DNA of 62,439 nt, taken from NCBI GenBank assembly GCA_032718475.1, contig JAUCBJ010003334.1, positions 1 through 62,439 of the forward strand, read 5' to 3'. The translations under genes were made by a program, and so were the position numbers. A model generated the notes under the pieces. The model saw nothing but the letters and a program-made list of their open reading frames with translations, searched no databases and was not told the DNA's origin. The stretch is from Nemertoderma westbladi (taxonomy: Eukaryota > Animalia > Xenacoelomorpha). Positions 12,886 to 59,409 of the stretch are shown here, one piece after another (position 1 is the first letter of the stretch; each line of letters starts with the position of its first letter).

Positions 12886-13015
12886 TATATTATATATATC
12901 ACGCTACACTGAGTAGCAGTATCGGTAATTAATTACTAGGCTAGCAGTTAATACTGAATTACTAGACTTGCTTAGACTGTAATATAGCAGTAGGTATACA
13001 ACTGTACAAACAAAC

Positions 13016-14011: not shown

Positions 14012-17000
14012 GAGATGAAGAGTTGAGGAGAAGGCTAGATGGACTTAGCCCTAATAGTGAAGGAGCCCAGCGTGTGTTGGACGCAATTGATGTGGATAGG
14101 TTAGCGGCGAACCAAGCTAAATTCGATGAACAACTCCGCATCGCTAGAGACCAAGAAGAAAGGGTGAAGAAAAAACGCATAGAAGACAGAAAGAAAGCAG
14201 CAGTAGCAGCTGCCGAAGCGGAAAGGAAAGCAGCCGAAGAGGAAAGTAAAGCAGCCGAAATGGAAAGAAAAGCGGCAGCGGCAGCGGCAGAGGCGGAAGC
14301 GAAAAGAAAAGCAGCCGAAATGGAAAGAAAAGCAGCAATGGCAGCGGCAGAAGCAGAACGGATAGCGGCTGAAGAGATCGCCCAATTAGAACTGGAAAAT
14401 ATTCAGGAGAATCAAGACTGCATAAATAAACAGTTAACAGCTAGTAATATGCAGATGATGAATCGATCTACTCCCAAAAGACAGGGATATACATCATCTG
14501 AGGAAGGCGATACCACCGATACTGAAGGCAAAGGAAATAGATCTCGTCTAAGCAGACGTAAAAGAACATTCCACCGTCAGAAATTGCCTGATTTGCCTCT
14601 AGCTGTTAGAAGGCAACTAAATAACACCAACTTAGGTAGTACAGAACCCACAGACCAAATAATTACAATAGAAAGACTCCCTACTATAGTAGATGAGCCT
14701 GAAATAATTAGGCCTGTTCTTGAAATCACCCCTTCGGTGATAGAGACACCTGTGCTCCCTGAACCTACCTCTAAATTCCCTCTGCACAGCACTAAGCTAC
14801 CTGTGCCCAGTAGAACAGCCCATGAGACAGTTCAGGTCCTGGACTCCGAGCGAAATATTCATGATTTGTCGCCCGTTGTCCCTCGTCCGCCCGCTACAAC
14901 GTTGGCGAATCCCGCTTCGGCGGTCGAATGGGTGGAGGAGAGACGACGGGGGATGGATCTCCTGCTCGGACAGATGCAGGAGACCGTTCAGCAATTCAAG
15001 GGCACAGTAAGGGAAAGTAGGCTAGAGTTGCAAGAAGTGCAGCAAAGTATCGCGCTAGAACGCGATAAATTAGTAAATACACAAAAGGGTATACCACCAC
15101 CCCCTGTAACAATGTGTCAACCTGTTAGGTCTGAAGTATCTCATGCGCAAGGTGTGGAGCCTACACGCATCTATACTGCTAGCGAAGTAGAAACTCCTAT
15201 AGTGAACCCTATTAAGGGTAATTATAGACCTGTTGATAATGATATTCCCTATAGACCGGATCATAATCCGAGAAATTTATATACCGATAACTCGATATTA
15301 AATAACACGATGGCCCAAGAAAGTTTTACGCGTCAAATGGCTAGAACCGAAGCCCGGCAAGCGGTAAAGGTGGGAGTGATCGTCAAGTTCAATGGAGATG
15401 AGATGAAATGGTTACCTTTTAATGAATATTACAAAGATAACATACAGTACTCTGTGCTATCTAATGGAGAGAAACTTAGATTCCTCATCGAGTGCTTGGA
15501 AGGATCTCCCAAGTTAATGGCGTTAAAGTTTATTGGACATCCAGGCGGATTAAGACAAGTTTGGGATACACTAAACATCAGGTATGGTAATAGGAATAAC
15601 ATAGCTGGGTATTTGTATGCAAAGTTGGTAGCGCCCCGAAAGTTTATTAGCAGCGGGATTATAGAGTTTTCCGATGAGATTCAGGAGATCTGCAGACAAT
15701 TAGATTGGCTAGGTAAGTCTAATGAGTATCAGAGTGCTATGGTTATTAGAGCAGTGGCTTCTACTTTACCGAAGGGTGGAGTAGGTACACGCTGGGATAA
15801 GAAAGTGTTATATATGATGGAACAACAACGACGAGACCCTACCATGGCTGATCTCATGTCATTCCTAGATGGAGAAGTGAAATTACAGCTCCTGAAACTG
15901 TCCAGAGAGAAGACACCGGAAAACAAGGTAAGTGAAAAACCCGTCTCTAGGAGAAAGGTAACACCAGTGTGTTATACAGATGACGGCGAAAGCCAGACTT
16001 CTCAAGGAGAAGATAGCGGGAAAGACGCTGACAGATCTTATTACGTAAATAAAATGCCTAAAGATCAGGTAAGTAAATTCAAGTCTCGAACCAATGACAG
16101 GAGAGAACAGGTAAGAAAAATTCCTCCTACGTCTCCCAAGAGAATTCAGGTGAGAAAGCCCGAAGAAAAAGCAAGTGTGCACAATGTTACGCAAAATAAG
16201 GTAAGTAACATCAAACCGAAATATGCGCTATGTGATGGGACCCATCGCTTGAATATGTGTGATGAATTCCTGAAGAAATCATTAGCGGAGAGACGGGAAG
16301 TCATGTGGGATAAGCGGTTGTGTTATAATTGTCTCAGACGAGGACACCAACGGCGAACCTGTTACTCCGACACAAGGTGTGCAAAGTGCGGTGCGAAACA
16401 TCATATCTTGTTGCACACTGAATTCGAGCGAAATAGTCCGAGTCAGGTAAGTGATTCCGAACTACATGTCCAATTCAGTGATGTGAACGACACTGATCAA
16501 TCTGAGATGGAAGGATTCTATACAGACGAGTTCTCCGACGAAAACGAATCCTGTTACATGATAAATACCGCAGTGTATCGAGCACTCACTTATGAAAAAG
16601 ATACAGACATTGACCTCACTCTAACTACTTCTGATCGACAACCATCTTGGAAAGCGCCAACTTCCAATGTAGGGATTAGAGAATTTCCTGTGGTACAGGT
16701 AAGGGTCCACGGACCAAAAAGGAGTTATGTAGTGAACGCCCTCCTTGACTCCGGTAGTACAGGAACATTCATCGACAAAGAGCTAGCTGAAGACATATTC
16801 GCTGGACAACCCAAATTCCGAACTAAGCTAAACATGTCAGGGATTATGCAGGTTTGGAAATCTACAGTAACAGCGGATTATTATGTAGGTGCGTTGTCCA
16901 CCCCCCAGGACGAACTAGGAGAACATAGCATAAGGTCAGTGAAAATGGTGGCTATAAAGAACTTCGCTACTACTCAAGCAGACCTTTATAATTGGGACGA

Positions 17001-20000
17001 GGATGAGAGCATCCAACATCTTAAGATACCTCGATTCCAGACTGATTATCCTGGAGTGCAAATACTCATCGGCCAAAACGCGCATGAGGCGCTCGAGACA
17101 TTGGAGAAACGGCCTGCTCAACCGCAGCCACTACAAACCTATGCGGTAAGAACTAGAGTAGGTTGGTACTTTACTGGCCCTTCCCGTAGAACTCTCATGG
17201 AAAGATTACCGAAAGATCAGGTATATCAAGTGCGAGAATGGGAAGTTGAGAACAGTGAGTTCGACGATCCAACTGAGGGAACTCCATACTCCTCAGACAA
17301 CGACGATATACATCAACTTTTCGATGAGGAGAATGCCATCGATCTCCTTAAGGAAAGCGAGACTTGGCAAAATCAAGTGAACTTATGTCAACTCCTTCTC
17401 CCATGCGAGCGAGACGACTATAACAACGAGCTTAATGACGTCATTGAACGTTATAATGCCAAGACTCGGGATGAACACGCCGTGAGATTCTTTACTCAAG
17501 AGGTCGTAGAGCCCAACTCCTACGATAAGGCCCTATCGGTGGAGGAAGAAAGAGCCAAGCAGATCCAAGCGACAACTACTCGTTTTCTTAAAGATCAAGG
17601 TAGATATGAGATCGGTCTTCCTTTCCGAAAGCGAGAACCAAAGTTCATTAACAACAGACCTTTGGCAGAGAAAAGAATTGCTCAACTACATCGACGCCTT
17701 ACGGCAAATTCTTCACCTAAAGAAATGTATCAAACGCAGTTGAAGAAGTTTATTAGCAAGGGATATGCGGAGCTAGTACCGGAAGAAACCCCTATAACTG
17801 AGAGAACGTATTACTTAACTCACCATTACATTCCCAAACCCGGTAAACCCCATGAAGTACGAGTGGTGTTTGACGGTTCTGCCCTTTATATGGGCCAATC
17901 TCTTAATTCTGAATTGTTACCCGGACCCAACTTACTCCAATCCTTGTTGGGAATACTATTAAGATTAAGACAATACTCCATTGCTTTCGCCTCAGATATA
18001 GAAGGCATGTTCTTACAAGTCAGAGCGCTGGATAGGGATCGAGATAGCCTACGATTTTTGTGGTGGCCTGAAGGAGACCTCAATAAGAAACCTGTGGAGT
18101 ACTGGATGACCATCCAAGCCTTTGGGATAATCTCGAGCCCTTCAAACGCCTGTTCCGTGGTGCGCACCACTGCGGATGACAACCGAGACGCCTTCTCTAA
18201 AGAGGTGATCGACAATATCAAACGAGACATCTACATGGACGATAATCTGAAGTCCCTTCCATCAGTAGAAGAAGCCATTGAGGTCGCTAAAGGAACGGTA
18301 GAATGCTTAAAGAAAGGAGGATTTCGATTAACTAAATTCACTAGCAACTCCCGTGAGTTTCTGGAGTCGATCCCGGTAGAAGATCGAGGAACAAAAGACC
18401 TAGATCTAATAAAGGATGATCTCCCAGAAACTAAGACCCTTGGTTTGAAATGGGACACAGAAAGAGATATCCTGTTTTTCCAATTAAAACAGCGAGATAA
18501 TCCAGTTCGGACTAAACGGATTTGTTTAAGTATCCTGAGCACTTATTTCGATCCATTGGGATTTATTAGCCCAGTTATATTGATTGCTCGGAGTTTAGTA
18601 CAACAAATGTGGCTTGAAAACCACTCATGGGACGATCCACTTAAGGGAGAATTATTAAAGAAGTGGATGAAATGGGAAGATTCTCTACCAGCCATCGAAA
18701 ACTTTATAATTTCCCGTTCATATTTTGGTCATGTTCTCCCTACGTATTCATATCAACTCCATGTGTTTGGAGACGCCAGCGATATGGGAATAGGTATAGT
18801 AGCCTACCTAAGGGTGGAAACTCCGGACGGAATTAAAGTCGCCTTGGTTACCTCTAAGGCATTGATAAACAACAAGTTGAAAGTTCCTCGAGCGGAGTTA
18901 AAAGCGGCTCTATACGCTACAGCCATCGGCCGGAATGTAACAGAACAGATAGACTATCCCCTGGAGAAAACTGTCTATTGGACCGACGCTTTACTCGTGT
19001 TGGAGTATATAACCAATGAAGTCTGTCAGTTCAGCGTCTTCGTTACCAACAGAGTAGCTATTATACCCAGTCGCACGACGATGGATCAATGGAGACATTG
19101 CCCCGGAACGATTAATCCAGTGGACATCGCTTCCAGGGGAGCAACTCCACAAGAACTGGTAGATACTCCAGACTGGTTAGGTGGACCCGACTTCCTCTAC
19201 AAAGAAGAAGAAGAATGGCCTCCTCATCTTACTACAGCAGAAATTAGACAGGCCAAGGGAGCGGAGAAAGTCAAGCCTAAAACTCAGGCGAGTAAATCGA
19301 AGTTATTCAAACCCACAGTAGATCTGTCTGTACTACATACTTCCGGAGACGACGCTTTGGATCAGAAACCCACAGCCACAAATAAACCCGTTGTGGAAAT
19401 CCGTGATAAGGATTGGAAATCTGGCATACCAGACGTCTCGCAAGGACTCTCACCTCTTCTGCAGAGAGCGATACATCACTACAGTTCCTGGAATCGGCTC
19501 TGTAAGGCCGTTACATATTTAAAGAGATGTTTTCACCATCACTACTCTGAGATGAAAGCAAAGGGTGATACCGCTCCAATCACATCAGTGCAGGTCCATG
19601 TTATTAAAGATCTTCCCCAATATAAGATACCCGACAGGTTTCTGAAGGAGAAGATCAGTTATCAGGAGCATGAAGAAACCAACAAACAGATGCTGAGACT
19701 CTTACAATGCTATGAAGATTCCGATAAGTATTTCCTGTTGTTGAGAAATCCACAGATGCGCTTAAGGGATCGTTTCTCTAGCACAATGATAGATGGGTTG
19801 ATACGTGTTGGAGGAAGGTTAACGAATGCCCCATTATCCTTTGATACTAAGTTCCCCATACTCATTAGAAATCTTGAAATACAAGTCAAGATGATTGTAG
19901 ATGTTCACAGCAAACTTTATCATGCTGGTAGAGAACGAGTTCTTAGCGAAATTCGAACTCGCTATTATTTTTATAAACCCCGTAGAGCTCTGAACCAAGT

Positions 20001-21117
20001 TCTTAGGAACTGTATACCCTGTAGGAAAGCATTCAGTAGGCCTTTGACACAGCGAGAGGCAGAATTACCTAGGGAACGAGTAAGCTTTTATGAACCACCC
20101 TTTACTAATACCGGTGTGGATTTATTTGGCCCTATTAAAGTATATCGTGCTAGGACTATAGTCAAGAGATGGTGTGTAATCTTTGTTTGTATGACTTGTA
20201 GAGCCATCCATCTCGATATGGTGAACGATTTATCTACCAACAGCTTTCTATTAAGCTTACGACGACAGATCGCTCGCTTTGGCACTAGTAACACGATGAG
20301 ATCTGATAAGGGAACAAACTTCATTGGTGCCAACAATGAAATCAAAGCTTACGTCAAAGATTGGAACCAAAGACAGGTGGACGACCAACTATGAGTAACA
20401 GCGTCTAGTTGGACCTTCAACGCCGCCGACGCCCCTTGGTGGGGAGGAAGTTGGGAGAGATTAATAAGAAGCGTGAAGACAGCATTTCATTTTATAGTGC
20501 CTTGCCGCGCTTATCTCACCGACGAACTTTTGCGGACGTTAATGGAAGAAATCGCCGCCTATCTCAACGAGAGACCGCTTATGCCAGTCTCATCGAGTCC
20601 CGATTCCCTGGAAACGCTAACACCCGCGCACTTCCTTCTGAAGAAACCTGTAGCCATGCTCCCACAATCGAAAATCACAGACGGAGACGAATACTGCCGA
20701 CAAACTTGGCAACTCATGCAGTTGTTATCCCGTCGTTTCGCTGACCATTTCGAAAAACATTATCTGCCCACGCTACAACTTCGAACTAAGTGGTTTGCGC
20801 AGCAAGAAAACGTCAGCGCTGGAGACATGGTTCTTATTGTGGATGTAGATCTTCCACGTAAGCAGTGGCAGACAGGTCGTATAATCGAGACGCACATCTC
20901 GGATGACGGTTTGGTGCGATCGGTAGAACTCGTCGTCATGCGACGTAACTTCAAGAAACCGGGAATTGTCTTCGAGACGCAGCAGCTCAATCGCCCAGTG
21001 GGACGTTTATGTTTACTGGACAGAGACAGAGAACTCTCCGGAAACTATGGGAGACAAGACACTCTTCCCACGACCACCTCCCTAATCCAACAAACATCTA
21101 GGGACTCCCCAACTTAA
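13822..21117 (+). CDS. gag-pol: BEL/Pao Gag-Pol polyprotein with one in-frame TGA (20392-20394) inside integrase
   Basis: KFNGD..W gag core, three zinc knuckles (first one C>Y), LLDSGS protease, SDIEGMF/YMDD RT, FGDAS/PRAEL/WTD RNase H, HSKLYH..CIPC, DLFGP, SDKGTNF, WWGGSWERLI integrase; 20473-21117 is in the same frame. Confidence 0.95.
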
Positions 21118-21658
21118 CAACGGCTGGAGTGGGTGTGTGACCATATTACTTTATATTTGTATTTGTTTTATTTTTATATTTATGTATGTATTATTATGTA
21201 ATTTTATTTTAATCGTTTTATTTAATTTTATTTAGTAGTATGGTATTTTAGAGATTATTTAGTAGATTAGTGCAATATATATTCGCGTTTATTATTTAAT
21301 TACGTATATTATATATTTAGTGCGACGGCGAGAAATAATTCTTTTTCTCTTTCCTTACTGCCCGTATTACATTATCAATACGTGACTACAGTAAGATGAA
21401 ATCTTCGTACTTACTAAAGTACAATAAAGCCACTACTATATTCAGTATTATTGGTAGGCAGAGTATTAGGAATGCAAAGTTCAGATCCTCGTGTCTCGGC
21501 TAAACCAAGCTCTGGGTAGACCTTGGAAACGACTTGCATCTTCAAACTGACATTGCTTCGTGCAATATTGCTCTCATACCGTATATTAAATAATACATAT
21601 AGTAGCGTGATGTCCCTTTAACAGTAGCGTATAACGCAAAATAAATCTGTTAAACCCT

Positions 21659-21930
21659 TTGACCATCTGTAATTCTAGTCGATTAAGATATCGCGGCACC
21701 CACCGATATACTTGAAAGACAAATTTCTAGAATCAATGGTTAACGTCCCCAGACAAGTTCTGGAATAAACTGGTGCCCATCCTAAATATTAATTATTAAT
21801 ATTTACAAAAATCTGTCAAATATCAGATCCTTTAAAATTCTAGTCGATTAAGATATCGTAGCACTTACCGATACTCTTAAAAGGACAAAATTCCTAGAAT
21901 CAAGGATCCCAGTCCCCAGACACGTTCTGG
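21659..21930 (+). ncRNA. Duplicated stem-loop pair between pol and the accessory ORF
   Basis: Two ~105-nt copies with ATTCTAG/CTAGAAT, TATCG/CGATA and CCAGA/TCTGG stems; different but paired basal stems. Confidence 0.6.
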
Positions 21931-22568
21931 AATAAAATTGTGTCTATTTAACATTAAATAATAAAATTTACGGGAATAAATTTAAATTCAGATATTTTAA
22001 TGAATTTAATAAATTGTCATTTTAGTCAATTTATAACATTCCCAAAATTCCATTAATTAATAGATCATGGGAGCGGAGATTCACTCTATTAAGTGTATTT
22101 GTGTACGAGAATCTCCAATGTATAGTCAATAGCCGATAAAATTCATAGAATCATGTATAAAGGGGATATTGACCATTAAAGAATTACTATTAAATAGCAT
22201 CCCAGATCTGTATGCATGAGAATTACCCTAATTCTACCGCTAGCTTTCCATAATGTCACCATGGCAACAACCACGCTAGAATTAGAAGTGAGTTAAAAGA
22301 ACAATAGAAGGCATGCCCCATTGAATAGCATAGGGAATAAATAGCGCACTGCTAGTATCCAAGGATACATAATAAATACAGTGACATTCTGGAAGGTACT
22401 GACTAATGGACAAATGGCCCGAATGTGTGCAGTTTGTTGCAGTTGTGTTGAATTTGTGCGTTTGTAGGTGAATGTTACTACTAAGGTGTGTTTACAGTAG
22501 CGAGTCGCAATTGTGAAAGTAACCTTAACTCTCCAAGAAGAACCTGCAGTACATCTAAGCCTTTGGGA

Positions 22569-22676
22569 CGGACAGTGAAGTGACTTGTGCCGGTTATCGT
22601 TGTCGTTGTGTAGCTACATCGTTGGCGAAAGCACAGCGACGACGGTACATCGGCGCTGAGGATCTTACACTGTCCG
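22569..22676 (+). ncRNA. Long G-U-rich hairpin upstream of the accessory ORF
   Basis: CGGACAGTG/CACTGTCCG, GTGCCG/CGGCGC and 16-bp TATCGTTGTCGTTGTG/CACAGCGACGACGGTA stems. Confidence 0.65.
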
Positions 22677-22758
22677 GGGGCAAAAGAGGAGTAGGCAGCG
22701 ACGCCCGCTAGCCTAATATATACAAACTCATTATAATATTGATAAACTCATAGCAGAT

Positions 22759-25700
22759 ATGACTGAGTTGATAGAAGATGATCTTGGTATCAGAGAGCGA
22801 TATACTCTACCTTTACAAGCGTTTGTCGATAGCTTGACACGCGGCGACGCTGGTCCAACTACTACGGAGGATGATGGTCGTTATATCGAACCGCCAATGT
22901 CCCCGGAGCAACTTACGCGTGAATTGGACTATAGAAAGTTCACCGCTCGCTATACGCATCGTAATGGTACGTATATGGACTTCTTAACTACCGGCCATCC
23001 TATCGATTTACACGACATGGACGATGTGGATACCGAAAGGGAAATGGTTTTATTTAAATATCATACCCAACGGAATCGGAATGATAAGCCAAGAATAGAA
23101 CACGAGAACTCTATTCGAAACAGACTTGAAAGAGAAGACGTTGAAGAGCCGGATAAACGCAACGACTTCAACGATTATCTGGAATTCTTGAGAGAAACAT
23201 ACCTCAATATTGCCAGTCAACAAAATCTCGAAACTCGATATCCTCAAGGTATACATCATGATCCTATGATAGAACTCAAACGACTCTATTTCACTATGAT
23301 GTATCTTACCGCCGATCGACCGCTACCTGTCATCCCGGATAGCTTCGAACAGATGGAGGAATATTGTAAAACTGGAGAACGATCACCCGTGTTTCCTCTG
23401 CAGGACATGCGTCTTCGGTATTACTGTGACGAATGCCCTAGACCCAATCAGCAAACGGAAAGACATAAACATCCGCGGAGATGTTGCGCTAAACACAGTT
23501 TTACACGATATACTTACGGGAGTTTCGAGCGAAACCTGTTCGACGTATCCCCTGCGGTCGCTTGACTCAAGCGATCCTTGAACAAACCGATGATCAGAGT
23601 TCCGGAATACTCGGTCAGACCTCCGCATTCCTCAGTTAGACCTCAAACTCTTGACCCTAATAGTATCACGGATCCTCCCGAACTGTACTCACTGTTCAAA
23701 GATCTAGTGTTACCCGAACAGTTGATCGGTGGCACTCCGGTAGTAGGCTCACGAGACATTCGCCAACCCTACCTAGCTGGATTGGGACGTGGACATCTAA
23801 TATCGCCGTTTAACCCATACAACCGTCCCGGCTTCACCTCTATCCAACCCGTTACGGAAGTCGAAGAGAGCGTCGTACGAAACGCATTAGACGCTATTCG
23901 GCAGAAAATCGGAAAGGGAACGTACGATTGTTTGGAGAAGCGTAAATTGCAGCAACAAGTCCAAGCGGTAAAGGAATTAGCTTTACACCAGTTCGATAGA
24001 GAAATACAAAATCTTGAGGAGGACATCGAACGTGGACGAACCTACTCTTTACAAGAGTTTCTAGATGAGCGTCTACAACAACAAGCGGAGGAGAATCAGC
24101 TCGAGGAGAGACATATAGAACTGGATGAGAGAGAAGAAGCGGCTTTAGCTCAACCCGAAGCGCAAATCCTGATGACGGATCTCTACTCTAAAACCATTCT
24201 TCATCCCTCGATGGTTCCCCATTTCGGAGACAAACTTTTTGCGACGGCACAACCCCAACCGGTTGATATCAACCTAAGATCTCGAGATCTTATCGCCGAC
24301 GCTCCTATGTTGCAGCGTCCGCCCATCGAATCCGCTCGCGTCGATGGTATACTCGTTGAACCTCCGGACAATAGAGCAGATCTTGTCCGTCGCATGGTAC
24401 ACGATGTAAACATACGCGCTAGACCTTTACCGGACTCGTTTTATGGGATCAAAGATCACCCTTATTACGTCAATCTAAAACAATATTACATGGTAAAACC
24501 GGAAGATCCTACACATAGTCTGAAGTTTCTACCGTTAATAAATCCTCTCGATCTTGTCGAACTCGAACAACTGCAGAAACATCTGGATCAGTTAGTTAAA
24601 GTAAACTCGTTTCGAAAACCATATAATGTTTCCAGAATAGAGAAAGAAACAATACCTCCGTATAATCTTGATGGATTCATCAAAACTCGTTTAGTGCACT
24701 GGAATCTTGATGTGTTATTCGAGGAAGAAAGAATACAACGATATGGAGATGTGGAAACATATACCACACAATATTTAAAGTATAAAGACCTGCCTAATGC
24801 TAGCGAATGTGCTACCTTGTGGCATCCTGTGGGAATGACACTCGAAAACGCCACTAAAGAGTGGAACGAAACTCTTAACGTTATCGAGATGTATGGAGTT
24901 GTCACTTACGATAACGAAGGTAGCGTTCCGGTTGGAGAACTTGGAACTACGCGGATGATACACATACGAGGACTCGCTGGTTCTACCCACGTATTTACTC
25001 GAGCGTGTTCCGACGTTATTGATTATTCTTTTGAAACTCTTACTGAGACACAAAAGAAACTCCGACATGGACAATTTGAGCTCGCGCAGCGTTACGTCAC
25101 CGACACCGAGCGCAAACCGGCCATGGGTATCGATGGATCGATGTTACCCCAACCCGTGCTCGAGATGTTGTTTAACGAAGGAATCCTTAAAATCGGCTCA
25201 GCTGTTTATGGAGACCTACAGAACGACTTTCGGAATATGGAGAACATTCCATACCCCTTCGTTGATACTCAGCTGATTGCTCCTTGGGCAGAAGGCCGAG
25301 GTTTCTTCCTCACTATGTACGCCAATACACCCAGCGGTATTACTAAAGTACAACGAACCTCCATCGGACATCTTGCCTTTCAAGAATACGGATGGAATTT
25401 CAAGGTTGGAAATCCTATAAATTACCAACAAGTATACGGAGATCATTATTCTCGTTTATACTTTGATGGACCGTTGACCGCACCTGGCGCCGTGTATAGC
25501 TTTATGAGTGTTCCACTTCATCCCTCCTTAGCTATATACACGATCTTTGAAAACGCAGCACTTGCCGGTTGGCTAGCCGATGTGTGCAGTCGTACCATAC
25601 GCGCCCATCCCTTAATACTTGGAACCAAACTCGCCAAGTTAGATGAACACAATAAATTCATCCGCTTTGAATGTTTCAGGCGCTTTCTGACTCCATTCCG

Positions 25701-27012
25701 TAACGTTGATAGTCAGTTCAAGGACCGCGCTCTGACCAAACTCAGCCTGAGAGACTCAGCGGCGGAGAAGCTAAACAGCGCGGGATTTGCCCTTTTTCAG
25801 GACGTTTGTATACAGAACTTGCACTCATCTGTTATACAAAGACCCCGAATACCCACGGGTTATTCTGTCGTCGAAGTTCAGACAGTGGGTCCGCTTGCGG
25901 AGACGGCCGCACCTACCTCAGCTATGCAATTGGAAGACGAACCAATATGCTTAGAAGCTGAAGCGATTCAGCCTACAGCGCCCCTGAGCAGCGATAACGA
26001 CTACGTTTTAGAGTGGTATCAAGGTCCACAATGTCTCACCGCATACGATTATCGACACGCTAACTATGTTTCTCGAAAACGTTGTCGATTATGCGCATCG
26101 AGAGACCATTTCACTCCTATGGACTCAGACGTACCCTGCTCCTATTTCCACGAACAACCAATGATGGAGATATATTGTGCGTATTGCAGACTTAATAACT
26201 CTCATATTTTTGCAGTCTGCCCCCAATTTATGACTCAATGCCACCACTGTCAACTTAAAGGACATGCCAGTTATAATTGCCCCTTTAATCACGATTTAGA
26301 GAGCGTAGATGAAATGATTACCCTGCGCTACATCCGAGCTTGGGAAGCGAACGCGGATTTACATTGTGAGTCCCGTCATCGATACTACCCTGGACGCTCT
26401 TACGAGGGAGTTTACGCGTTCCATCCTTATTTATTCGCGTCTGTGGAACAAAAAACACGTACACCGAGTTACAAACTAATGAAGCGTGTTGGTGAGTGTA
26501 TTTCCACCAAATTCGTTCGAAAATACCTTAGGAACGTCAATCCTAACGATATTACTTCATACCATTTGATCAATTATATCCGTCAAGACCCTGAGTATGG
26601 CGATTTATTTATCAACTCGCACCCGGAGTTACAGGAAGTATCTCGACAGCCCTACGAATATCGAGCCCGAGAACGCGAGCTGGAAAGAACTATTAAACCA
26701 AGGAAGTTTCTCACCACTCACGGTCCGCCTACCGCCATTGTCCAGACGACCCGTCAAGGACCCGTAGGAGCTGCTGTCCTGAGGCGCGCCCTAAAGGCTG
26801 TTAGACCTCGCTCCACGGAAGTTGATATCGATCAACCAGGTACCTCGACCGGCGGATATACCGATCGCAATCCGAAACCTTCTGATGCAATTGTATTGCA
26901 CCCTTCACCCAGGAGTTATAGCCCTCCTAGTAAAGTGGCTCGCCCCAAAGAGAAAAGGACTCTTGCTAGCCTCAAAAAACTGCGTAAACGCCGTCCGCGT
27001 AAGAAAGACTAA
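22759..27012 (+). CDS. Accessory protein: DEDD-type 3'-5' exonuclease-like domain, triple CCHC-type zinc knuckles, basic tail; split by one in-frame TGA (23563-23565)
   Basis: ORFs 22759-23565 and 23578-27012 share a frame; VVTYDNEG, LPQPVLEMLFNEGILKIGSAVYGDL, FVDTQLIA, SIGHLA motifs; CRLC..H..C, CAYC..H..C, CHHCQLKGHASYNC; KKLRKRRPRKK. Confidence 0.8.
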
Positions 27013-27090
27013 CTGTTTAGAGTATTTTTATATTTTAGAAACTGTGATTTGTTATATTTTATAGACTTAAATCCCATTTTCTGGGAGCGG

Positions 27091-28249
27091 TGTAAAAGCT
27101 TTTGCGTAATTAACCGGTTATTTTCCCTTAAAGTACTCTGTAGTTGGTTTGCCAGGCATAAAAAGGCCGTGTCCTTGCTGTACTTGTGTTTTAGAGGACA
27201 TAAAAGTCATTTCTTCTGTATTTGTACTTTAGAGGACATAATCCGCAATTTCGGGATGCAATAAGCTCGATACTCTTGAAAACAGTGTCGCTACCATGAC
27301 GACGGCTAACAGCTGATATTGCCACGTCGACATTTCTTTGTTTCTTTGTTCTCTCTTTGTTCGGTTGACCAATCAGAGCGTTTTTTGTCTCTGTGTTGGA
27401 GGTGGATACAGAACTCAGTAATTCAGTGTTATGTTTTTGCCCAGAGCCTAAGAACATCGGCTTTTGGCACCTCCGTATATCAGCATTCTTTAGCTTTACA
27501 TTAGTAGGCTTAATTATAGAACGTATATCTGTTATCGAGTCATCTCAGTTAACAATCCATAACTTACTTACCATATCTTATTAATATTACTGCTTTTACT
27601 GTCGGTTATTCGTTATATTTGTTGATGAAATATTATATCGGAATACTGATCAATAATCAGACACCCCACCTTCTTGATATACTAAAGGTTAGAGAGACCG
27701 GTTACAGATAAACGATTGCGACCTATGTTAAGTGGTTTGAAGTGAATCTAATGCTATTTGATAAGCACTACATGGGTCCGTTGCTGTTCTCTTTATATAT
27801 GATAAAATTTAGTGAAGGTCGGCAGATTAGTGTGCAGTATTGTGCAGCATTGTGTATGAGTGTAACTGATAACAAAGCATCTCCTAAAGAATGCGCCATA
27901 TACGTTAATCTATAGCCTTTTCGTTGTGTCTAGTTTAAGTCATAACTCTGTTTACATATTTAGAGCGCCACGTCCTAAAGGAACTGTTAATATTTCCCGA
28001 AAGTGAATAATATTTGTCAGAGATTATATATTACGATCAGTCGAATAATACGGTAGGCTTACACCATCAATCATTAAGCTTCCGAATTCAGTCTCCCGGG
28101 TATATCCAGCGGGTGAATGATTGCGCATAGACTGGCTTCGGCTAATGTAGTGTGTCAAATACTCGTCATAAGCTAAAGAATATATATCATCCAAAAGACA
28201 TTCTAATTTTGGCAGGTTAAACTGTCAAAGGTCTTCAAAAGCGCAAACA
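27091..28249 (+). repeat. 3' LTR of BEL/Pao element 1
   Basis: Preceded by GGGAGCGG; followed by TSD GTTTC. Confidence 0.97.
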
Positions 28250-28299
28250 GTTTCAAATTATCGATCTGATAATCTATATGATATCTATAACTTACATAG

Positions 28300-29352
28300 T
28301 TGAAATAATAGTATGCGGTTTGTTATGTACCTCTACATATTTTGCGCCTTCTTTATTTTTCATTCATTCATCCATTTATAATTTACGGGTTAATTGTATG
28401 GGGTAACGCGACCCATTCAATAATTAATCCTATCCGCACTAAAATTAATAAATTACTGCGTGCAATCACGTTTAGTGATAGATTTTCCTCCACTGTGCCT
28501 ATTTACAAATCTTTGAATATTTTACCTATCCAAGCGCTCTACAAATATCAGGTATTAATATTTATGTATAATGTTTTAAAAGGTAATTGTCCAAGCGATT
28601 TAAAAAAGGTTGTTTTCTAGAACTGACGCTGTCCATTCCCATAGAACACGGTCGGCTAGCCAAAAAATTTTCTATATTCCATCAAATTGTATTCTTGTAT
28701 CTCAAAGATTACTAAAATATCAGGGTCCTTTTTTGTGGAATTTATTGCCTACTTCAATTAAAGAATGTCAATCATTAAACATATTTTCTGCTAAACTAAA
28801 AAAATATTTAATTAATGAACTGTAACTGCGGGGTCTGGTGCTTTGGTCAGTTTTCATTGCGGTGTCGCTAACGGCTCGTATTATTAACGTTGTTGTCTAT
28901 TCCGTTATCCACTTATAATTTGGGTTTAGTTTATTTCTAACTTTGCTCCTTGTGTGTAATTTTTAATTCAAATGTCGTGCCTACGTACAGATGGATCGTC
29001 ACAATATATGTATTCATATATTTCTACGTGCTTTAATTTTAATTATATATAACGTATACGGTAGTAATTCTAATAAACACAATACGTACTGTATTAAAAT
29101 CGTCAATAATCTTCTAAACGGCGCACAGCCACGTAATAGCTTTGCTATATTGCTGTGTTGCCCTTTTCACTATTACCTAGTTAAATTTTAATTTCACATT
29201 AATTTTAAAACTTAACGCTCCGGCACTTATTTCCAGGAAATTAACTGTTTGTAATATACGTAATTTTGATTGTAATTTTTTTTTGTTATGTATATTGTAT
29301 GTACTTTATATATATATTAGTGAAATAAATAAATAAACTGAAACTGAAACTG
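28300..29352 (+). mobile_element. 3' fragment of CR1/L2-group LINE, frameshifted, (AAACTG)n tail
   Basis: LYFSFIHP..YGLIVWG and GPFLWNLLP motifs; AATAAA followed by ACTGAAACTGAAACTG. Confidence 0.85.
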
Positions 29353-30780
29353 GTATATTGAATCGGTGGACTGACCATCCATTGACTGAGGTGCTTCAAA
29401 GCGGTTTTGAACTTCTACTGTGTAAGCAACCTTTACTGCATAACAACCAACAAACCAAACGAATTGTTGTTGATTCACACCAGATATCTATTGCCCACAC
29501 CTTCCACATGCACCAATACACTGTTTCTAGAACTGCTTTCTATTGCATATTAAATACTGAATTAGCACAAAATCGAACCAGCCTAAATACAAATAGCACA
29601 GCAAGACTGACTGCTTGCTACATACTACTGCACTGCAATAACAGTATTACGCCCTACATACATTAGCTAGGGACCCCCCCCCCCCCCCCTTATTACAAGA
29701 TACTTTTAGCTTTTACTAGAGCGGCCACGCACCCATTATTATTATTATTAATTACAGAAACCTGGAAACATATTCCCTACAACCAACGTTCCATGATGCA
29801 AGGAGTTGCAAGATAACTGTTGATTCTATATACCCCAGTCAACATATGAATATTGGCGCTCGGAGGATTACATTCTATTGAACTTGGAATCGGATTCCAT
29901 TGAACTTATATTATGTATAGTATATGGCTGAACATATGGGTGTGGTAACCCAAAAAAAATTTAGAGAGTTTTATAACCAACTTTATTTTATTCAGTATTT
30001 TATTGCCTTTTTACTCCTGAATGTTGTCATTTCATAGCTCTTTGAGGAAAAGAGTTTTGGAAGAAACAAAGTTTATTAGAAACGATTACAATGTCCGTTT
30101 ATTGCTTACCTACACGACGTTCTTAGGTAATAATTTGATAATGGTTTTTGAAATATTCCATAACTATTTAGTAATTTGATATTAATTAAATACCGCATGC
30201 ACAATGCACATTCAACGTTAAGTTCAATGTCGGTTGTGGGTCGGCCACGTACATGGGTCCGTTGCTGTTCTCTTTATATATGATAAAATTTAGTGAAGGT
30301 CGGCAGATTAGTGTGCAGTATTGTGCAGCATTGTGTATGAGTGTAACTGATAACAAAGCATCTCCTAAAGAATGCGCCATATACGTTAATCTATAGCCTT
30401 TTCGTTGTGTCTAGTTTAAGTCATAACTCTGTTTACATATTTAGAGCGCCACGTCCTAAAGGAACTGTTAATATTTCCCGAAAGTGAATAATATTTGTCA
30501 GAGATTATATATTACGATCAGTCGAATAATACGGTAGGCTTACACCATCAATCATTAAGCTTCCGAATTCAGTCTCCCGGGTATATCCAGCGGGTGAATG
30601 ATTGCGCATAGACTGGCTTCGGCTAATGTTGTGTGTCAAATACTCGTCATAAGCTAAAGAATATATATCATCCAAAAGACATTCTAATTTTGGCAGGTTA
30701 AACTGTCAAAGGTCTTCAAAAGCGCAAACAGTTTCAAATTATCGATCTGATAATCTATATGATATCTATAACTTACATAG

Positions 30781-31833
30781 TTGAAATAATAGTATGCGGT
30801 TTGTTATGTACCTCTACATATTTTGCGCCTTCTTTATTTTTCATTCATTCATCCATTTATAATTTACGGGTTAATTGTATGGGGTAACGCGACCCATTCA
30901 ATAATTAATCCTATCCGCACTAAAATTAATAAATTACTGCGTGCAATCACGTTTAGTGATAGATTTTCCTCCTCTGTGCCTATTTACAAATCTTTGAATA
31001 TTTTACCTATCCAAGCGCTCTACAAATATCAGGTATTAATATTTATGTATAATGTTTTAAAAGGTAATTGTCCAAGCGATTTAAAAAAGGTTGTTTTCTA
31101 GAACTGACGCTGTCCATTCCCATAGAACACGGTCGGCTAGCCAAAAAATTTTCTATATTCCATCAAATTGTATTCTTGTATCTCAAAGATTACTAAAATA
31201 TCAGGGTCCTTTTTTGTGGAATTTATTGCCTACTTCAATTAAAGAATGTCAATCATTAAACATATTTTCTGCTAAACTAAAAAAATATTTAATTAATGAA
31301 CTGTAACTGCGGGGTCTGGTGCTTTGGTCAGTTTTCATTGCGGTGTCGCTAACGGCTCGTATTATTAACGTTGTTGTCTATTCCGTTATCCACTTATAAT
31401 TTGGGTTTAGTTTATTTCTAACTTTGCTCCTTGTGTGTAATTTTTAATTCAAATGTCGTGCCTACGTACAGATGGATCGTCACAATATATGTATTCATAT
31501 ATTTCTACGTGCTTTAATTTTAATTATATATAACGTATACGGTAGTAATTCTAATAAACACAATACGTACTGTATTAAAATCGTCAATAATCTTCTAAAC
31601 GGCGCACAGCCACGTAATAGCTTTGCTATATTGCTGTGTTGCCCTTTTCACTATTACCTAGTTAAATTTTAATTTCACATTAATTTTAAAACTTAACGCT
31701 CCGGCACTTATTTCCAGGAAATTAACTGTTTGTAATATACGTAATTTTGATTGTAATTTATTTTTGTTATGTATATTGTATGTACTTTATATATATATTA
31801 GTGAAATAAATAAATAAACTGAAACTGAAACTG
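30781..31833 (+). mobile_element. Second copy of the same LINE fragment, created by the tandem duplication
   Basis: Near-identical to 28300-29352. Confidence 0.85.
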
Positions 31834-33159
31834 GTATATTGAATCGGTGGACTGACCATCCATTGACTGAAGTGCTTCAAAGCGGTTTTGAACTTCTACT
31901 GTGTAAGCAACCTTTACTGCATTAACTGCATAACAACCAACAAACCAAACGAATTGTTGTTGATTCACACCAGATATCTATTGCCCACACCTTCCACATG
32001 CACCAATACACTGTTTCTAGAACTGCTTTCTATTGCATATTAAATACTGAATTAGCACAAAATCGAACCAGCCTAAATACAAATAGCACAGCAAGACTGA
32101 CTGCTTGCTACATACTACTGCACTGCAATAACAGTATTACGCCCTACATACATTAGCTAGGGACCCCCCCCCCCCCCCCCCCTTATTACAAGATACTTTT
32201 AGCTTTTACTAGAGCGGCCACGCACCCATTATTATTATTATTAATTACAGAAACCTGGAAACATATTCCCTACAACCAACGTTCCATGATGCAAGGAGTT
32301 GCAAGATAACTGTTGATTCTATATACCCCAGTCAACATATGAATATTGGCGCTCGGAGGATTACATTCTATTGAACTTGGAATCGGATTCCATTGAACTT
32401 ATATTATGTATAGTATATGGCCGAACATATGGGTGTGGTAACCCAAAAAAAATTTAGAGAGTTTTATAACCAACTTTATTTTATTCAGTATTTTATTGCC
32501 TTTTTACTCCTGAATGTTGTCATTTCATAGCTCTTTGAGGAAAAGAGTTTTGGAAGAAACAAAGTTTATTAGAAACGATTACAATGTCCGTTTATTGCTT
32601 ACCTACACGACGTTCTTAGGTAATAATTTGATAATGGTTTTTGAAATATTCCATAACTATTTAGTAATTTGATATTAATTAAATACCGCATGCACAATGC
32701 ACATTCAACTGACTAAACTAGAGCAATATCTAGAGAACCTATCTCTCTACTATAGTTTTGATGGTGTCTACACTAACATCATTGTGAATCAAATTCCTAT
32801 ATTGCATTGATATCCTGATCCTGAATTAATTTCAGTCAGCCTTCAAATCCTCACCAATATCTCGAGAACCAATCACTCTAGTATTGTTTTGATTATGTCT
32901 ACAGCCACTAAATAGGTTATAGTGGTTCGAATCAGTAGGAGAAAGAAATGAGTAAAGCCCCGTTGACATCCAATGGTGTGTGAGCGGTAAAGTAGTCCGG
33001 CGGTCTTGAAGCAGTAAGCTACCCGGAGCCTGTTCACACCCAACGGTAACTGATTGTCTATCTGTAGACTGTGAATTCAACAGGAAATTACATTAATTGT
33101 TTTAACATTGTTTAAATGGGCTGCGGTAAACCGCGCGGTTTAGCGCACAACTAACTGTT

Positions 33160-45282: not shown

Positions 45283-46853
45283 ATGGAGTCCTACACCGTC
45301 GCTAAGTTCATATGTAAAACTCTCGATAACCTCATTACGGCGGTTCCTTGTTCCTTTATTGACTACGAGTGGAATGAAGTTATCGGCCACGCCTTCAAAG
45401 CGGTCGAGAATATTACACCGGGAGAGACAAAAATGCTCACCGTCATCGATTCCTGGGACGAGAATGGACCGTTCGACATCCCTACGATTACCGATCTCCT
45501 CGGTGCGGAGGAACCACTCATTTCCTCAGATGGGGAAGAATTATGGCTACAGGAAGGTGTTCTACTGTCCACCCCAAAGCGACAGCTCGATCCGGAAATC
45601 GCGTACGAACTGGCTGCCAAATGGGTTGCCTCGGCCGAACCTGCGACGGAAGCAGGCGTTTCCACCCCACTTGGCTCTGGTAGCCCCGCGAGGGAGTTAG
45701 TCACTACCTTCGCGTTGAACGACTTCGGCGACATATGCCAGAGGTTATCCCCATATCCTTTCCCGGGTGGCGAAGACTGGTCTTCGGAGATTCCGAGTAC
45801 CAGCACCCAATGGACCCGCTCAGCGATACTGGTCGAAAGGGTCCCAGCGCTGCGCCGACTCCCGAAGATCTCCTCGGAATCCCTCCGTCGAAAGCCCCGG
45901 CACCTCTTCGCCGACCAGCGGTGGCAACTACCCCCTCCATTCTACAGGATCCTATGTGACTAACCCGATGGTACGCCGAGCAGACCGAATGGATCTACCG
46001 CCAGAAATGGTCGTCCGAGATGAGACCGGCAGGACATAAAGAAGGTTATCGGAACGAGAACCTACTACGCCAAAGCCCAGCCTTTCGCGGGCTACAGGCC
46101 ACAGCGAATATTCAAAAGAGCGACCGACGACTCGAGTATTATGTCGGCGTCCCAATCCCGATCTTCTTCGGTCGGGAGATGCAGTTAGAGATATGCGCAG
46201 ACTGCGGTTCGGAGCAGTGCCCACACGGTAGAAGAAATCAAGTAACCGATTTGTGCCTACAGCTCCACGGGATTCTATATTGCCCATACTGCGCGACATC
46301 GGGACATGATGTTTCAGTTTGTCCAACCCTCTATAACCTCTGCACAACTTGCGGTTTCCGTAGACATTCCGCTAGCCCCCGCTGCAATATAAAATGTCCT
46401 ACAAAGGACGTTACCGCTATGGAAAATTTGGTTATGTTCGAAACCTACGCAAATAGCCACATAAAGACCAAGGTACGGAGAAACGCTCGGAATATCACGC
46501 AGGAAATGGCGTGCGGGTATTTTGCCTTCCCGGAACGCCTCCATACGACAGCGACGTTACCATTCCATTACGTGGATCTGTTGCTAAGGGCCGGATTATT
46601 CGGCCCATTCGAGATCCTTAGACGCTTATATTCGTATAAACAAGAGTACGGTGTCGGAAAGTGGTTCCTAGAGGCGAGCAACACCGAGTTGGAAAGACGG
46701 ACCGATATGATCCCGCTGCCATCGAAAGGAAGAGCCGCCAGGAGACAAGCCGAAACGTTGCTCACGATGGATGTCGATGCTCCCCTACCAGCTCTAGCGA
46801 TCGACGAGAGTCGACGGGCGAAGAGGGGAAAGGCGTATCGGAGCAAGAAATAG
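45283..46853 (+). pseudogene. Frameshifted, 5'-truncated accessory ORF with zinc-knuckle cluster
   Basis: CADC, CPYCATSGHDVSVCPTLYNLCTTCGFRRH..C, FETYANSH..R...GYFAFP and a basic tail align by eye with the 23578 ORF C-terminus. Confidence 0.75.
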
Positions 46854-47026
46854 AGGATCGGGATATTCCAGGAACATTTATATTGAACATTTATTTTATA
46901 TATATATTAACTCTAGGCCAAATTAATCAAGACTATGCAATATTACAATTTTGGGTTTTTTATATGGGAAATGACCTACGCAAACTCGATCTACCGATAG
47001 ACCTCACGAAGGTCATTGGGGGGGAC

Positions 47027-48214
47027 TGTTCGCGGTATTTCAACTTTTCCTAACGCGAGTTGAATATTTTTTGGATTTATTTAAAATGATTATTCCGATA
47101 TCACTACTAGGTGCGGGAACATGGGTTTTGGGCACACTCAATGAACTGGGGGCGATTTATGGGCGAATATTGGGGCGACTTACGGGGTACAGGACTCATT
47201 TCATGTATATAAGGGCCAGGGGGGGAAGGAAAAGTTAAGCAGTATACAGGTTTACCTGACTACTATTAGGCCTAGCCAACTTCCTGCTGCCTGTAGAGGT
47301 GGATTTGGTAACTCGCTCGGTCTAAAGGACACGGGCTGCCCTTAGTGGTTCCTGACCAACAGCAGTTATTACGAGCCTGAAAAGGACATCGGAAAGTCTG
47401 CTGCTTGTGTCAGGGATTTGCGATGGGAAACGACGACAGACCCCTAGCCAAGCCGTACTGGTTCTCGATGATCAATCTCTTCGGGGTTCGTGAGGGGTGG
47501 TACGGACACGCGAATGGGTCGACCGACTAACAGAGGAAGAGTGCGACGACGACTGCCTTCCTGGAGTGGGTGCCACGACCAGTGTTAGTACGAGCCTGAA
47601 TAAGGACTCGGAAAACCACCAACCGTTGGGGCTCACAACGGGCTGACAGACCCCTTAGCCAAGCCGTACTGGTTCTCGATGATCAATCCCTTCGTGGTTC
47701 GGGAGGGGTGGGACGGACACGCAACGGGGTCGAAAGACAAAGGACTGGACTCTACTGGCCTACCGACTGTTCGGAGCAGTTTCTCGGCTGCCGAAGCGAC
47801 TACGAGCCTGAATAAGGACTCAGAAAGCCTAGGTGGTTGGGTCTCTGCGATGAACCGACGGACCCCTAGCCAAGCCGTACTGGTTCTCGATGATCGATCC
47901 CTTCGGGGTTCGGGAGGGGCGGGACGGACACGCGAACGGGTCCACCGACATGACAGACTCCTAGCCAAGCCGTACTGGTTCTTGATGACCGATCAATTCG
48001 GGGTTTGGGAGGGGTGGTACGGATACGCGACAGAGTCTACCGACTGGACCGACCCTTAGCCAAGCCGTACTGGTTCCTGATGACCGATCCCTTCGGGGTT
48101 CAGGAAGGGTGGTACGGACACGCAACAGGGTCGACCGACACCAACACTACGGTACCAAGACTAGGACCGAGGGAAAATCGGGGAACATTAGTTAGGCTAA
48201 AATCTGAGCGAACA
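47027..48214 (+). repeat. Putative LTR (end at 48214, or alternatively 48343)
   Basis: Follows a PPT; TGTTCGC...GCGAACA 7-bp inverted ends; TATATAA at ~47206; alternative end GTTACA at 48343. Confidence 0.6.
47350..48133 (+). ncRNA. Array of structured RNA repeats (five ~83-nt A units, three B units; order B-A-B-A-B-A-A-A)
   Basis: Nested stems with a UUCG-loop apex and compensatory changes between copies. Confidence 0.75.
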
Positions 48215-48419
48215 GTGGGTAATTAAATAATATACTGTAGGGATTTATATTGTCGTGTTATATTATTGTGAATAATTTGGTGTATATTGGTTTGGGGAAG
48301 CCCAACTTATTCTCAATCAAGGTTCAACTGTAGGGAAGTTACATTAAAGAGTATATCCAACCAATGAAGCTTTTCCTCAACCGCAATCTTGCATTTAAGA
48401 ATGTATTCCTTCTCCACAA

Positions 48420-57855: not shown

Positions 57856-58497
57856 TTAAAAAGTTATACAACATCGACCCGTATGATCAGGATTGCATCG
57901 TTTGAAACTAGCAATTACGACTTTCTCGTATACATCAACAACACCTTCACCAGTGAGAGCACTGCATTCCATGTAACTGTCAGCTCCAATCTTCTTCGCC
58001 ATTGCTTCGCCATCCTTTGTCAATACCGGGTTTCCATTGGTACGACTCAAATTTCTCAAGATTTCAGCATCTATTCGAAGATCAATCTTAGTACCCAGTA
58101 ACACAATCGGAACCCCAGGGCATCGTGTTTTTATCTCGGTAGCCCAGAAATCTTGAACTCTGTAAAAAGAAGCTGGATAAATCACTGAGAAGCAAATAAT
58201 ACATACTATCGAAGAGCACTCATCGCCGAACACATTCAGATACATATTCCTATTATATGAGCTGCAGTCGAGAAATCGTAGTAGATAAGGAAAGCCGCCA
58301 CTTACAGAAGAAAATTCTGTTGTACTCTCCGAACTATAATCTCCTTTGTAAGATGGCATCGATTCCGATGGTTTTGCACTCAGCATAGGGTTTCGTTTGT
58401 TTGGAATCACCCCATACGGACCATTTGTACTATAATTTATGAAAAAAGTCTTCCCAACGTAGGGGTCTCCAACTACAATGCATTTAATAATATACAT
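57856..58497 (-). CDS. Atypical Rho-family small GTPase-like protein, intronless CDS, CaaX terminus
   Basis: IKCIVVGDPYVGKT P-loop, ICFSV..P.SF..V...W..EI...CPGVPIVLLGTKIDLR, Rho insert, YMECSALT, CCITF end. Confidence 0.9.
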   Translation of the reverse strand: MYIIKCIVVGDPYVGKTFFINYSTNGPYGVIPNKRNPMLSAKPSESMPSYKGDYSSESTTEFSSVSGGFPYLLRFLDCSSYNRNMYLNVFGDECSSIVCIICFSVIYPASFYRVQDFWATEIKTRCPGVPIVLLGTKIDLRIDAEILRNLSRTNGNPVLTKDGEAMAKKIGADSYMECSALTGEGVVDVYEKVVIASFKRCNPDHTGRCCITF

Positions 58498-59409
58498 TTC
58501 TTTTCCTGACAGTTTTCCAGCTTATTGTACCTTCTGTTAATTTAGCTTAAAATATAAATATCGCATGGCCTAAATTATTGACTTAATTAAGAAAGCATTG
58601 TGCTATACCAATGACCATGAAGAAGGAGAGTATAGTGGAAGTGGGCAGTAGTCCTCACTAATCAAATTATGCAGTATGCTATAATTTTTTATCTTCTACT
58701 CCACTCATATATCACTGAATTCTTAGTAATCGCAGAGGTCACTAAAATGTTCATAATCGCGAATCTTATCAAACTATTTCAAATCAAACAAATTCTCACT
58801 AAAAGTCTCCCAAATACTGTCCGGTTTTGGTTCAGTGCCTTTGAGCCTTGTATTGGGAATAGGGTTGGTGCGCGAAACAATCGAATAAGGGGTAACAAGG
58901 AGCTCTGAATCGAGTGGCGGTGTTTGTTTTTTGTAAAAACACGAGGAAATGGAGGAAATGGCGGGTTTAAGTAAGCGCGGGAGGCCAATTTTGAAAATGG
59001 GTTGTGATTGGCTGCTACATATTTGACGTCATTACGCAGTGCTCTGATAATTTTTTATTTTTTTTATTTTTATTTTTTTTATGATAGAGGTTTTCGATCG
59101 ATTTAAATACATATTAAATATCAATCATTTCACACGTGGCTTATATTAATTGAAAGCAGAGAGTCTTGCGCGTCTTTTGGCACTACAATTAATGAAATTA
59201 ATGGCGATATACCCTAATGTTGTTTCCACTTTCCCTTTCCAGCAGTATTTCCAGCAGCAATACTGCATTCCAAGCTGTTTGAGTATGGTGTGACGGTAAG
59301 GCCTATACAGATTATTAGATTTAAAATAACATTAAACTTTTAATATTTATAATACCGGTATTATTATTATTATACCGGTCAGCCGCGTACAGTAATTATG
59401 GCAGTAGTG

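Follow-up and report, generated by a model that had tools for sequence, protein, structure and literature searches.

An array of hairpins with a predicted loop E head, probably a selected RNA structure, in the likely LTR of a Bel/Pao-type retroelement

The stretch of DNA analyzed here, 62,439 nucleotides from the xenacoelomorph Nemertoderma westbladi (contig JAUCBJ010003334.1; in the following referred to as the window), is retroelement-rich animal DNA and carries an array of two kinds of hairpins, termed B and A, in a fragment flanked by the truncated pol genes of a Bel/Pao and of a gypsy element. The B array is a real feature and probably a selected RNA structure. It is likely found in the transcribed R or U5 part of the LTR of a Bel/Pao-type element, and the chances are about even that B serves as a repeated, cis-acting and protein-binding hairpin on the leader RNA of this retrotransposon, similar to the redundant stem-loops in the R/U5 region of retroviruses. 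The combination of motifs is new to Rfam and to the literature searched: for the LTRs of retroviruses, RNA structures that act in cis have been studied extensively, whereas no structured LTR array of this kind was found for Bel/Pao elements in that literature.

An earlier, sequence-only reading of this DNA had claimed three copies of a conserved core, and this was borne out, as the 12-mer TACGAGCCTGAA matches exactly at positions 47370, 47589 and 47801 and nowhere else in the window with fewer than two mismatches. A 17-mer of the A unit has five exact matches, compared to a mean of 0.14 expected by chance at up to three mismatches. Models built from the A and B units recover just five A copies (97 to 110 bits) and three B copies (52 to 59 bits) in the window, the next-best matches of which score 12 bits. 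The units run as (B-A)x3 and end with two solitary A units, A4 and A5. The proposed alternation of B and A is therefore correct for three units, but not for A4 and A5, both of which lack a B. The starts of A1 to A3 are spaced by 211 nt, those of B1 to B3 by 219 and 212 nt, and those of A3 to A5 by 95 nt (Table 1). Identity between the units is uneven: the 27-nt B cores share 24 to 25 of 27 positions in pairwise comparisons and the A units 68 to 77 of 83, which corresponds to around 82 to 93% for core and A, whereas the arms flanking the core share 6 to 12 of 24 positions in ungapped alignments and have turned over while retaining their cognate pairing. The stems had also been described as unrelated, a description that has to be revised. 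The arms are strongly diverged paralogs, and similarity is kept in three of six arm comparisons (p = 0.006, 0.010 and 0.034) and absent from the remaining three. The linkers between 47418 and 48175 contain 20 GAC triplets in 200 nt (5.0 expected; at most 11 in 1000 shuffles), in part because the ACCGAC ends, which are found in four of the five A units, have been duplicated. GAC repeats are a binding preference of SRSF7/9G8. Furthermore, an inverted repeat of 13 nt (92%) connects 47761-47773 with 48209-48221 and would enclose B3, A3, A4 and A5.

Table 1. Features of the hairpin array and its surroundings (positions refer to the window)
Feature	Position	Strand	Remarks
Zinc-knuckle ORF piece with basic tail	45960..46853	+	homolog of the C-terminal portion of the Bel/Pao extra ORF
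Candidate polypurine tract and LTR start TGTTCGC	47018-47026, 47027	+	174 nt past the ORF stop
Candidate TATA box (47206), followed by an initiator-like site (47239)	47206..47244	+	putative promoter
B1 hairpin	47348..47417	+	core 47368-47394; predicted loop E pattern with U at the bulge, capped by GAAA; an additional A is bulged
A1 hairpin	47437..47523	+	UUCG-capped rod; k-turn or 7-bp helix register
B2 hairpin	47566..47636	+	core 47587-47613; predicted loop E pattern, bulged G, GAAUA cap; outer stem weakest
A2 hairpin	47647..47734	+	
B3 hairpin	47776..47848	+	core 47799-47825; predicted loop E pattern, bulged C, GAAUA cap
B3 outer stem	within 47776..47848	+	5 G-U pairs, second internal loop GAA/CUA
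A3 hairpin	47859..47945	+	
A4 hairpin	47954..48040	+	no preceding B
A5 hairpin	48049..48135	+	no preceding B
Candidate LTR end GCGAACA	48208-48214	+	repeats the LTR start in inverted orientation over 7 nt without a mismatch
Alternative if the LTR runs on: ATTAAA and GU-rich tract as poly(A) signal	48222, 48250-48259	+	

The core is kept in all three B copies as claimed; however, it is structured by its own pairing and is thus not a single-stranded sequence motif. CGAG pairs with CUCG, and CCU pairs with AGG around a GAAA or GAAUA cap, with one bulged A. Below this inner stem, the unpaired bases ANUA on the 5' strand and GAA on the 3' strand are conserved in all three copies, and their order is predicted to represent the pattern of the sarcin-ricin/loop E domain. 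Every copy contains all six bases of the loop E motif (A, U, A / G, A, A), and the bulged base alone varies. Likewise, the sheared A-G and U-A handle (UA / GA), as judged by sequence and by position in the predicted fold, and the A-A pair under the triplet are found in all three copies. In the predicted B head, the loop E internal loop is followed by a stem of 4 bp, one bulged A and a second stem of 3 bp, which is capped by a GNRA-like GAA(U)A. The base order is shared with loop E and sarcin-ricin motifs of 5S rRNA, the 28S sarcin-ricin loop and the central region of PSTVd; B differs from these systems in that the bulged base is not the same in all copies and in that it carries a bulged A on the 3' strand. 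A bulged U is found in one viroid variant. The extrahelical base is a G in 5S RNA and a C in PSTVd, and the loop E motif of PSTVd binds RPL5 (PMC6633198). B can be regarded as a natural experiment, in which one head is carried by three different stems and the bulge is sampled as U, G and C. We assume that the B head, with its loop E, short bulged stem and GNRA cap, resembles the arm of 5S rRNA formed by loop E, helix IV and loop D, and that the GAA(U/A)A cap resembles the GNRA-like pentaloop of boxB. Judged by Rfam, which gave no 5S match, B is not derived from 5S.

The differing flanks had been suggested to pair in each copy, and all stems named at that time are present in the predicted folds. 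In a 3x3 duplex test, the best partner of every 5' arm is the 3' arm of the same copy, with -25.8, -18.4 and -23.5 kcal/mol for the cognate arms of B1, B2 and B3, respectively, compared to -9.0 to -17.5 kcal/mol for the six non-cognate arm pairs; for B2, the margin over the B3 arm is just 0.9 kcal/mol. The 61 stem positions of B comprise 43 Watson-Crick pairs, 10 G-U pairs, two A-C mismatches and six other mismatches. The excess of G-U over A-C on the plus strand is significant (p = 0.019) for the registers of the predicted folds and on a strand that is rich in G. Compared to 200 shuffles, the plus-strand hairpins of B1, B2 and B3 reach z-scores of -4.8, -2.5 and -2.0, and 0, 3 and 5 of the 200 shuffled sequences, respectively, are as stable as the native one. 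On the minus strand, the z-scores are -4.5, -0.6 and -0.4; a preference for folding of the plus strand is found for B2 and B3. Among 95 background segments outside of the array, z-scores of -2 or below occur in seven, of -2.5 or below in one and of -4 or below in none. When the core was fixed and the arms were shuffled, sequences as stable as the native hairpin were obtained in 0 of 500 cases for B1, 31 of 500 for B2 and 17 of 500 for B3. Predicted folding beyond that of shuffled controls is thus strongly supported for B1 and modestly for B3, but it is borderline for B2 with the arms alone shuffled. The outer stem of B2 is also unstable in its sequence context, with pair probabilities of 0.72 and 0.07. 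The G-U excess and the plus-strand bias point to a structure that forms at the RNA level. The proposal that a conserved core on interchangeable helices constitutes a functional RNA module is supported by the kept core and by arms that have turned over yet pair with their cognates, and it is further backed by the G-U excess and the loop E bases.

The array begins around 500 nt past the zinc-knuckle ORF piece, which is the last ORF before it. In BLASTP, this ORF shows weak similarity to the extra ORF of a Bel/Pao element (23566-27012; E 0.009), and HMMER identified four relatives with E-values of 1.5e-8 to 1.1e-5, while a fifth match is a low-complexity repeat. An alignment of eight sequences, namely the knuckle ORF, the Bel/Pao extra ORF and six database proteins, contains 19 invariant columns. 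One relative, P0004, matches the extra ORF in two regions (E 4e-7 and 6e-5), and its N-terminal part groups at 0.95 with clusters of 3'-5' exonucleases (PF01612, Atlas). Pfam gave no domain in either extra ORF, Atlas no usable match for the knuckle domain and the PDB no match for the exonuclease region. The Bel/Pao element itself is intact (9664-28249), with LTRs of 1159 nt that are 99.7% alike and a 5-nt target-site duplication. The extra frame after its pol (22717-27012) has one internal TGA, Cys/His knuckles and a region that is likely a 3'-5' exonuclease. The stop of this ORF and the start of the LTR are 79 nt apart.

LTR landmarks include a polypurine tract followed by TGT, a TATA box and a poly(A) signal with a GU-rich tract (PMC3601003). 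A junction of at least five G with TGT occurs once on the plus strand of the window (47018-47029) and has the same form as the LTR-aligned junction at 27091 of the intact element. Between 47027 and 48480, the TATA consensus is found once, at 47206. Since the polypurine tract with TGT, the TATA box and the ATTAAA with its GU-rich tract bracket the array, the array is likely located in the R or U5 part of the LTR. Contigs of other copies run on across 48214, and the LTR would end either there or beyond 48400. The summed contig depth rises before 47027 and shows no step at this position, and neither a second LTR copy nor a target-site duplication was found for it within the window. Directly upstream of the candidate polypurine tract lies an inverted repeat of 22 nt with a 4-nt loop (46970-47017).

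Based on the observed repeat anatomy, motif pattern, multicopy family and neighboring ORF family, and on the predicted folds, we infer the LTR position, the transcription, the ligand and the function of the array as follows. Tandem duplication of a B+A unit of around 211 nt would have produced several sites in a row, and the outer stem, which would only need to pair, would have been free to turn over in sequence. Upon transcription from the 5' LTR, the array would make up the initial kilobase of genomic RNA, where it could recruit an RNA-binding protein several times over. Candidate ligands are the zinc-knuckle protein of the element with its basic tail, or a host protein that binds loop E such as RPL5. 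Once bound, this protein might help the unspliced RNA to be exported, translated or packaged, similar to what retroviral R/U5 stem-loops do. The ligand of B can be directly tested with 75-nt RNAs. The retroviral PCE forms a stem-loop in R/U5 that is redundant and that acts in cis on unspliced RNA (PMC2657110). The inferred R/U5 position and the redundancy, with three B and five A hairpins, match this element; the likeness is one of position and redundancy. The array consists of eight hairpins of two kinds over around 800 nt of an invertebrate Bel/Pao-type element and is predicted to possess loop E motifs and GNRA-like caps, while the binding of RNA helicase A and the enhancement of cap-dependent translation are features of the PCE.

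All five A hairpins have a 3-nt bulge and tandem GA, and in a standard k-turn, tandem G-A and A-G pairs follow a bulge of 3 nt (PMC8191799). Two registers fit the A units about equally well: a k-turn, in which 91.5% of cells are paired, and a helix of 7 bp next to a large bulge, in which 93.6% are paired; a switch between the registers (47467-47500 and the same place in A2 to A5) is possible. It is conceivable, yet unlikely, that B and A fold together by tertiary contacts into a compact dimerization or protective RNA domain, for which no specific protein would be needed. In such a domain, the GNRA-like cap or the loop E of B would dock into the minor groove of an A unit kinked by its k-turn. 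GNRA loops are known to dock into helices, and the bulge with tandem GA in all A units as well as the constant order, in which B precedes A by 11 to 21 nt in all three cases, would fit this idea. However, tandem duplication of one 211-nt unit suffices to explain the order, two A copies have no B, and the second register fits the A units as well as the k-turn does. Moreover, no complementary run of more than 3 nt was found between the loops of B and A in the three B+A pairs. When B and A were folded as pairs, the tested base pairs formed within B or within A, with one A2 pair and the outer stem of B2 being uncertain.

Rev/RRE, Rex/RxRE and phage N/boxB presumably present an arrangement similar to that of the knuckle ORF and the array, in which a basic protein encoded by the element acts beside repeated structured RNA sites. 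In a Bel/Pao-type circuit of this kind, the exonuclease/zinc-knuckle protein would bind the LTR array of B hairpins and k-turn A hairpins, and the copy number would tune expression; this is rather unlikely. Compared to those systems, the candidate protein is the product of a zinc-knuckle/3'-5' exonuclease ORF, and a related element has no array: the A and B models have no match in the intact Bel/Pao element despite its ORF. An intact relative with the ORF but without the array implies that the zinc-knuckle protein is not a general ligand, and it makes a conserved pairing of protein and RNA less plausible. Extra ORFs are also found in the bdelloid LTR elements Juno and Vesta, whose ORF3 after pol encodes a DEDDy exonuclease with an undemonstrated role; the available part of this source does not mention a structured LTR array (PMC5408684). 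The family described here shares with Juno and Vesta the additional ORF downstream of pol with a 3'-5' exonuclease domain, but it is of the Bel/Pao type and its exonuclease is fused to a Cys/His knuckle domain. For the extra ORFs of LTR elements that encode exonuclease/zinc-knuckle proteins, the B array is a candidate partner on the RNA side, and if the circuit existed, it would provide an RNA target for their unexplained DEDDy-type ORF3.

Another peculiarity of the A units is that all five match the A-box consensus of Pol III exactly, each time at the same position and, as in tRNAs, after a closing stem of 6 to 7 bp. The B-box consensus follows 14 nt after the A box, in register in two of five units and four bases off in one, and both boxes occur in this order in 0.03% of A3 shuffles, a result that was found post hoc. 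A tRNA-derived origin of the A units is possible. It could also be imagined that the LTR contains a Pol III cassette, in which these boxes serve as internal promoter for small decoy RNAs comprising A, B or both, with B mimicking the loop E arm of 5S rRNA, but this appears improbable: the spacing of the boxes is shorter than that of tRNA-type promoters, no run of four T is present between 47126 and 48371, ARAGORN detected no tRNA in the A units, and Rfam gave neither a 5S nor a tRNA match.

Whether the structure of B is maintained can be judged from other copies. Contigs of four DNA runs (X1 to X4, from three studies) contain 3403, 1293, 2057 and 62 matching records, respectively, most of which are 90 to 99% alike, and reveal a multicopy family within one animal species. 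A total of 17 variant sites of B was examined, drawn from 40 of the 43 variants listed plus two sites from a second table: six break a predicted pair, three restore one, one keeps one, five are unpaired and two are deletions, which remove the additional bulged A in B1 and base four of the B3 cap. At three stem positions that are mispaired in the window copy, the pairing letter accounts for 95 to 100% of the depth in X1 to X3, and a pair-breaking variant at 47583 accounts for 93 to 97%; the common letter of the other copies thus pairs at three of four near-fixed differences. No variant falls on the 18 loop E positions of B among the 40 of 43 listed, and no two-sided compensatory change is visible among the 17 sites, which come from per-site tables without linkage. 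The summed contig depth of B2 is several-fold lower than that of B1 and B3 in X1 to X3 and nil in X4; depth, however, does not equal copy number. Joints that skip one or two units were not counted, as they can be produced by paralogous contigs placed on the wrong unit. Loose contig ends of X1, X3 and X4 (47335-47860) continue from the 3' half of a B core into arms unlike the three of the window, and in one contig of X4, the end of an A unit is joined to a B1-type start via 33 other letters. The B/A family seems to comprise additional kinds of stem and other arrangements of the units.

The array could also be without function, in which case the unit would have been duplicated, conversion or template switching would have homogenized the cores and A units, and quasi-palindromes at the DNA level would account for the arms. 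The array would then be nothing but an ordinary, decayed LTR repeat. LTRs frequently carry tandem repeats (PMC3601003), the arms retain traces of common descent, several variants break pairs, and formal covariation is not significant, since 344 of 500 column shuffles of the three sequences reach the observed values. In the three paralogs, the pair next but one to the loop is C-G, U-A and U-G, and sliding the stem partners lowers pairing from 89% to between 17 and 44%. Homogenization, however, would have had to affect a patch of exactly the 27-nt structural motif, the G-U excess and the plus-strand bias point to RNA, the UUCG and GAAA caps can be read on the plus strand alone, and the common letters of other copies pair at most near-fixed differences. 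We therefore consider an array without function improbable.

A self-cleaving activity would be a further possibility. B and A alternate as two rod-shaped domains with conserved internal loops, and the hairpin ribozyme is likewise built of two helical domains with internal loops, of which loop B contains a cross-strand purine stack and an S-turn (PMC8216279). It is nonetheless very improbable that B and A constitute a two-domain ribozyme of a new class that functions like loops A and B of the hairpin ribozyme. The invariant bases of the hairpin ribozyme are A22-A23-A24-C25 and A38 in loop B as well as G8 and G+1 in loop A. C25 and A38 are invariant in 941 sequences (PMC8216279), but B lacks equivalents of both; no C follows GAAA in any of the three B copies, and a descriptor of hairpin ribozyme loop B has no match on either strand. 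The hammerhead core consists of CUGANGA and GAAA on a three-way junction; its 7-mer is found once in the array, in A5, and in none of the B units, and no Rfam ribozyme matches at E<=10. In addition, repeated cutting of the leader would be expected to destroy the LTR transcript. Least probable of all, and hardly to be expected, is a location of the array in a 3' untranslated region, where it would act like a constitutive transport element (CTE, MusD MTE), as a polypurine tract with TGT precedes the array, as does a TATA box, and the LTR of the intact relative begins so close to its ORF stop, even though an LTR retrotransposon has in the MTE a structured element for export (PMC3362945), the array follows the last ORF at a short distance and the LTR boundary is putative; an array in R would, moreover, be present at both ends, so that such a location overlaps with the R/U5 hairpin favored here.

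Known RNA classes do not account for the units. At the gathering score, Rfam 15 has no match in the whole window, including twister, twister sister, pistol, hatchet and HDV ribozymes as well as IRES, 5S, SECIS and snoRNA families. At E<=10, pieces of 1.6 kb and 190 nt gave either none or chance matches to lncRNAs and snoRNAs (E 4.9 to 9.9). Pre-miRNAs have a conserved arm and a variable loop, and B shows the reverse pattern with a conserved head and diverged arms, which led to the rejection of a pre-miRNA cluster. Based on consensus features, a SECIS element was rejected due to a helix that is too short and the lack of an apical AA, twister due to the lack of UAA in the corresponding loop, and a box C/D pairing between A and B because box C is degenerate in the A copies preceded by B. 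In a viral collection, one scan for B gave no match and another a single one with 16.8 bits, compared to the 52 to 59 bits of true copies. The single match for B in a metagenome collection lies inside a bacterial coding frame and does not have the B fold. For A, five matches were obtained in the viral collection, none of which has the A fold, and neither A nor B is found in the prokaryote genomes. The viral, metagenome and prokaryote collections hold little animal DNA, and their blanks thus do not imply confinement to a single species. A locus search with a single protein yielded no confirmed match, nor did word-index protein searches, the second of which covered proteins of 1253 to 3575 aa.

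The intact Bel/Pao element has some additional features. No TGG-type primer-binding site follows its 5' LTR (10823-10860). Two-copy tandem repeats with around 79% identity and without a match to the A and B models are located in its leader (11103-11683, units of around 290 nt) and between pol and the extra ORF (21671-21971, around 136 nt). A nearly identical tandem duplication of 2.46 kb (27769-32709), into which the 3' portion of the Bel/Pao LTR falls, represents either a recent duplication or an assembly artifact. On the minus strand, a frame encoding a Rho-like small GTPase (57856-58521; Pfam Ras) is the sole host-type gene among the frames of at least 150 aa.
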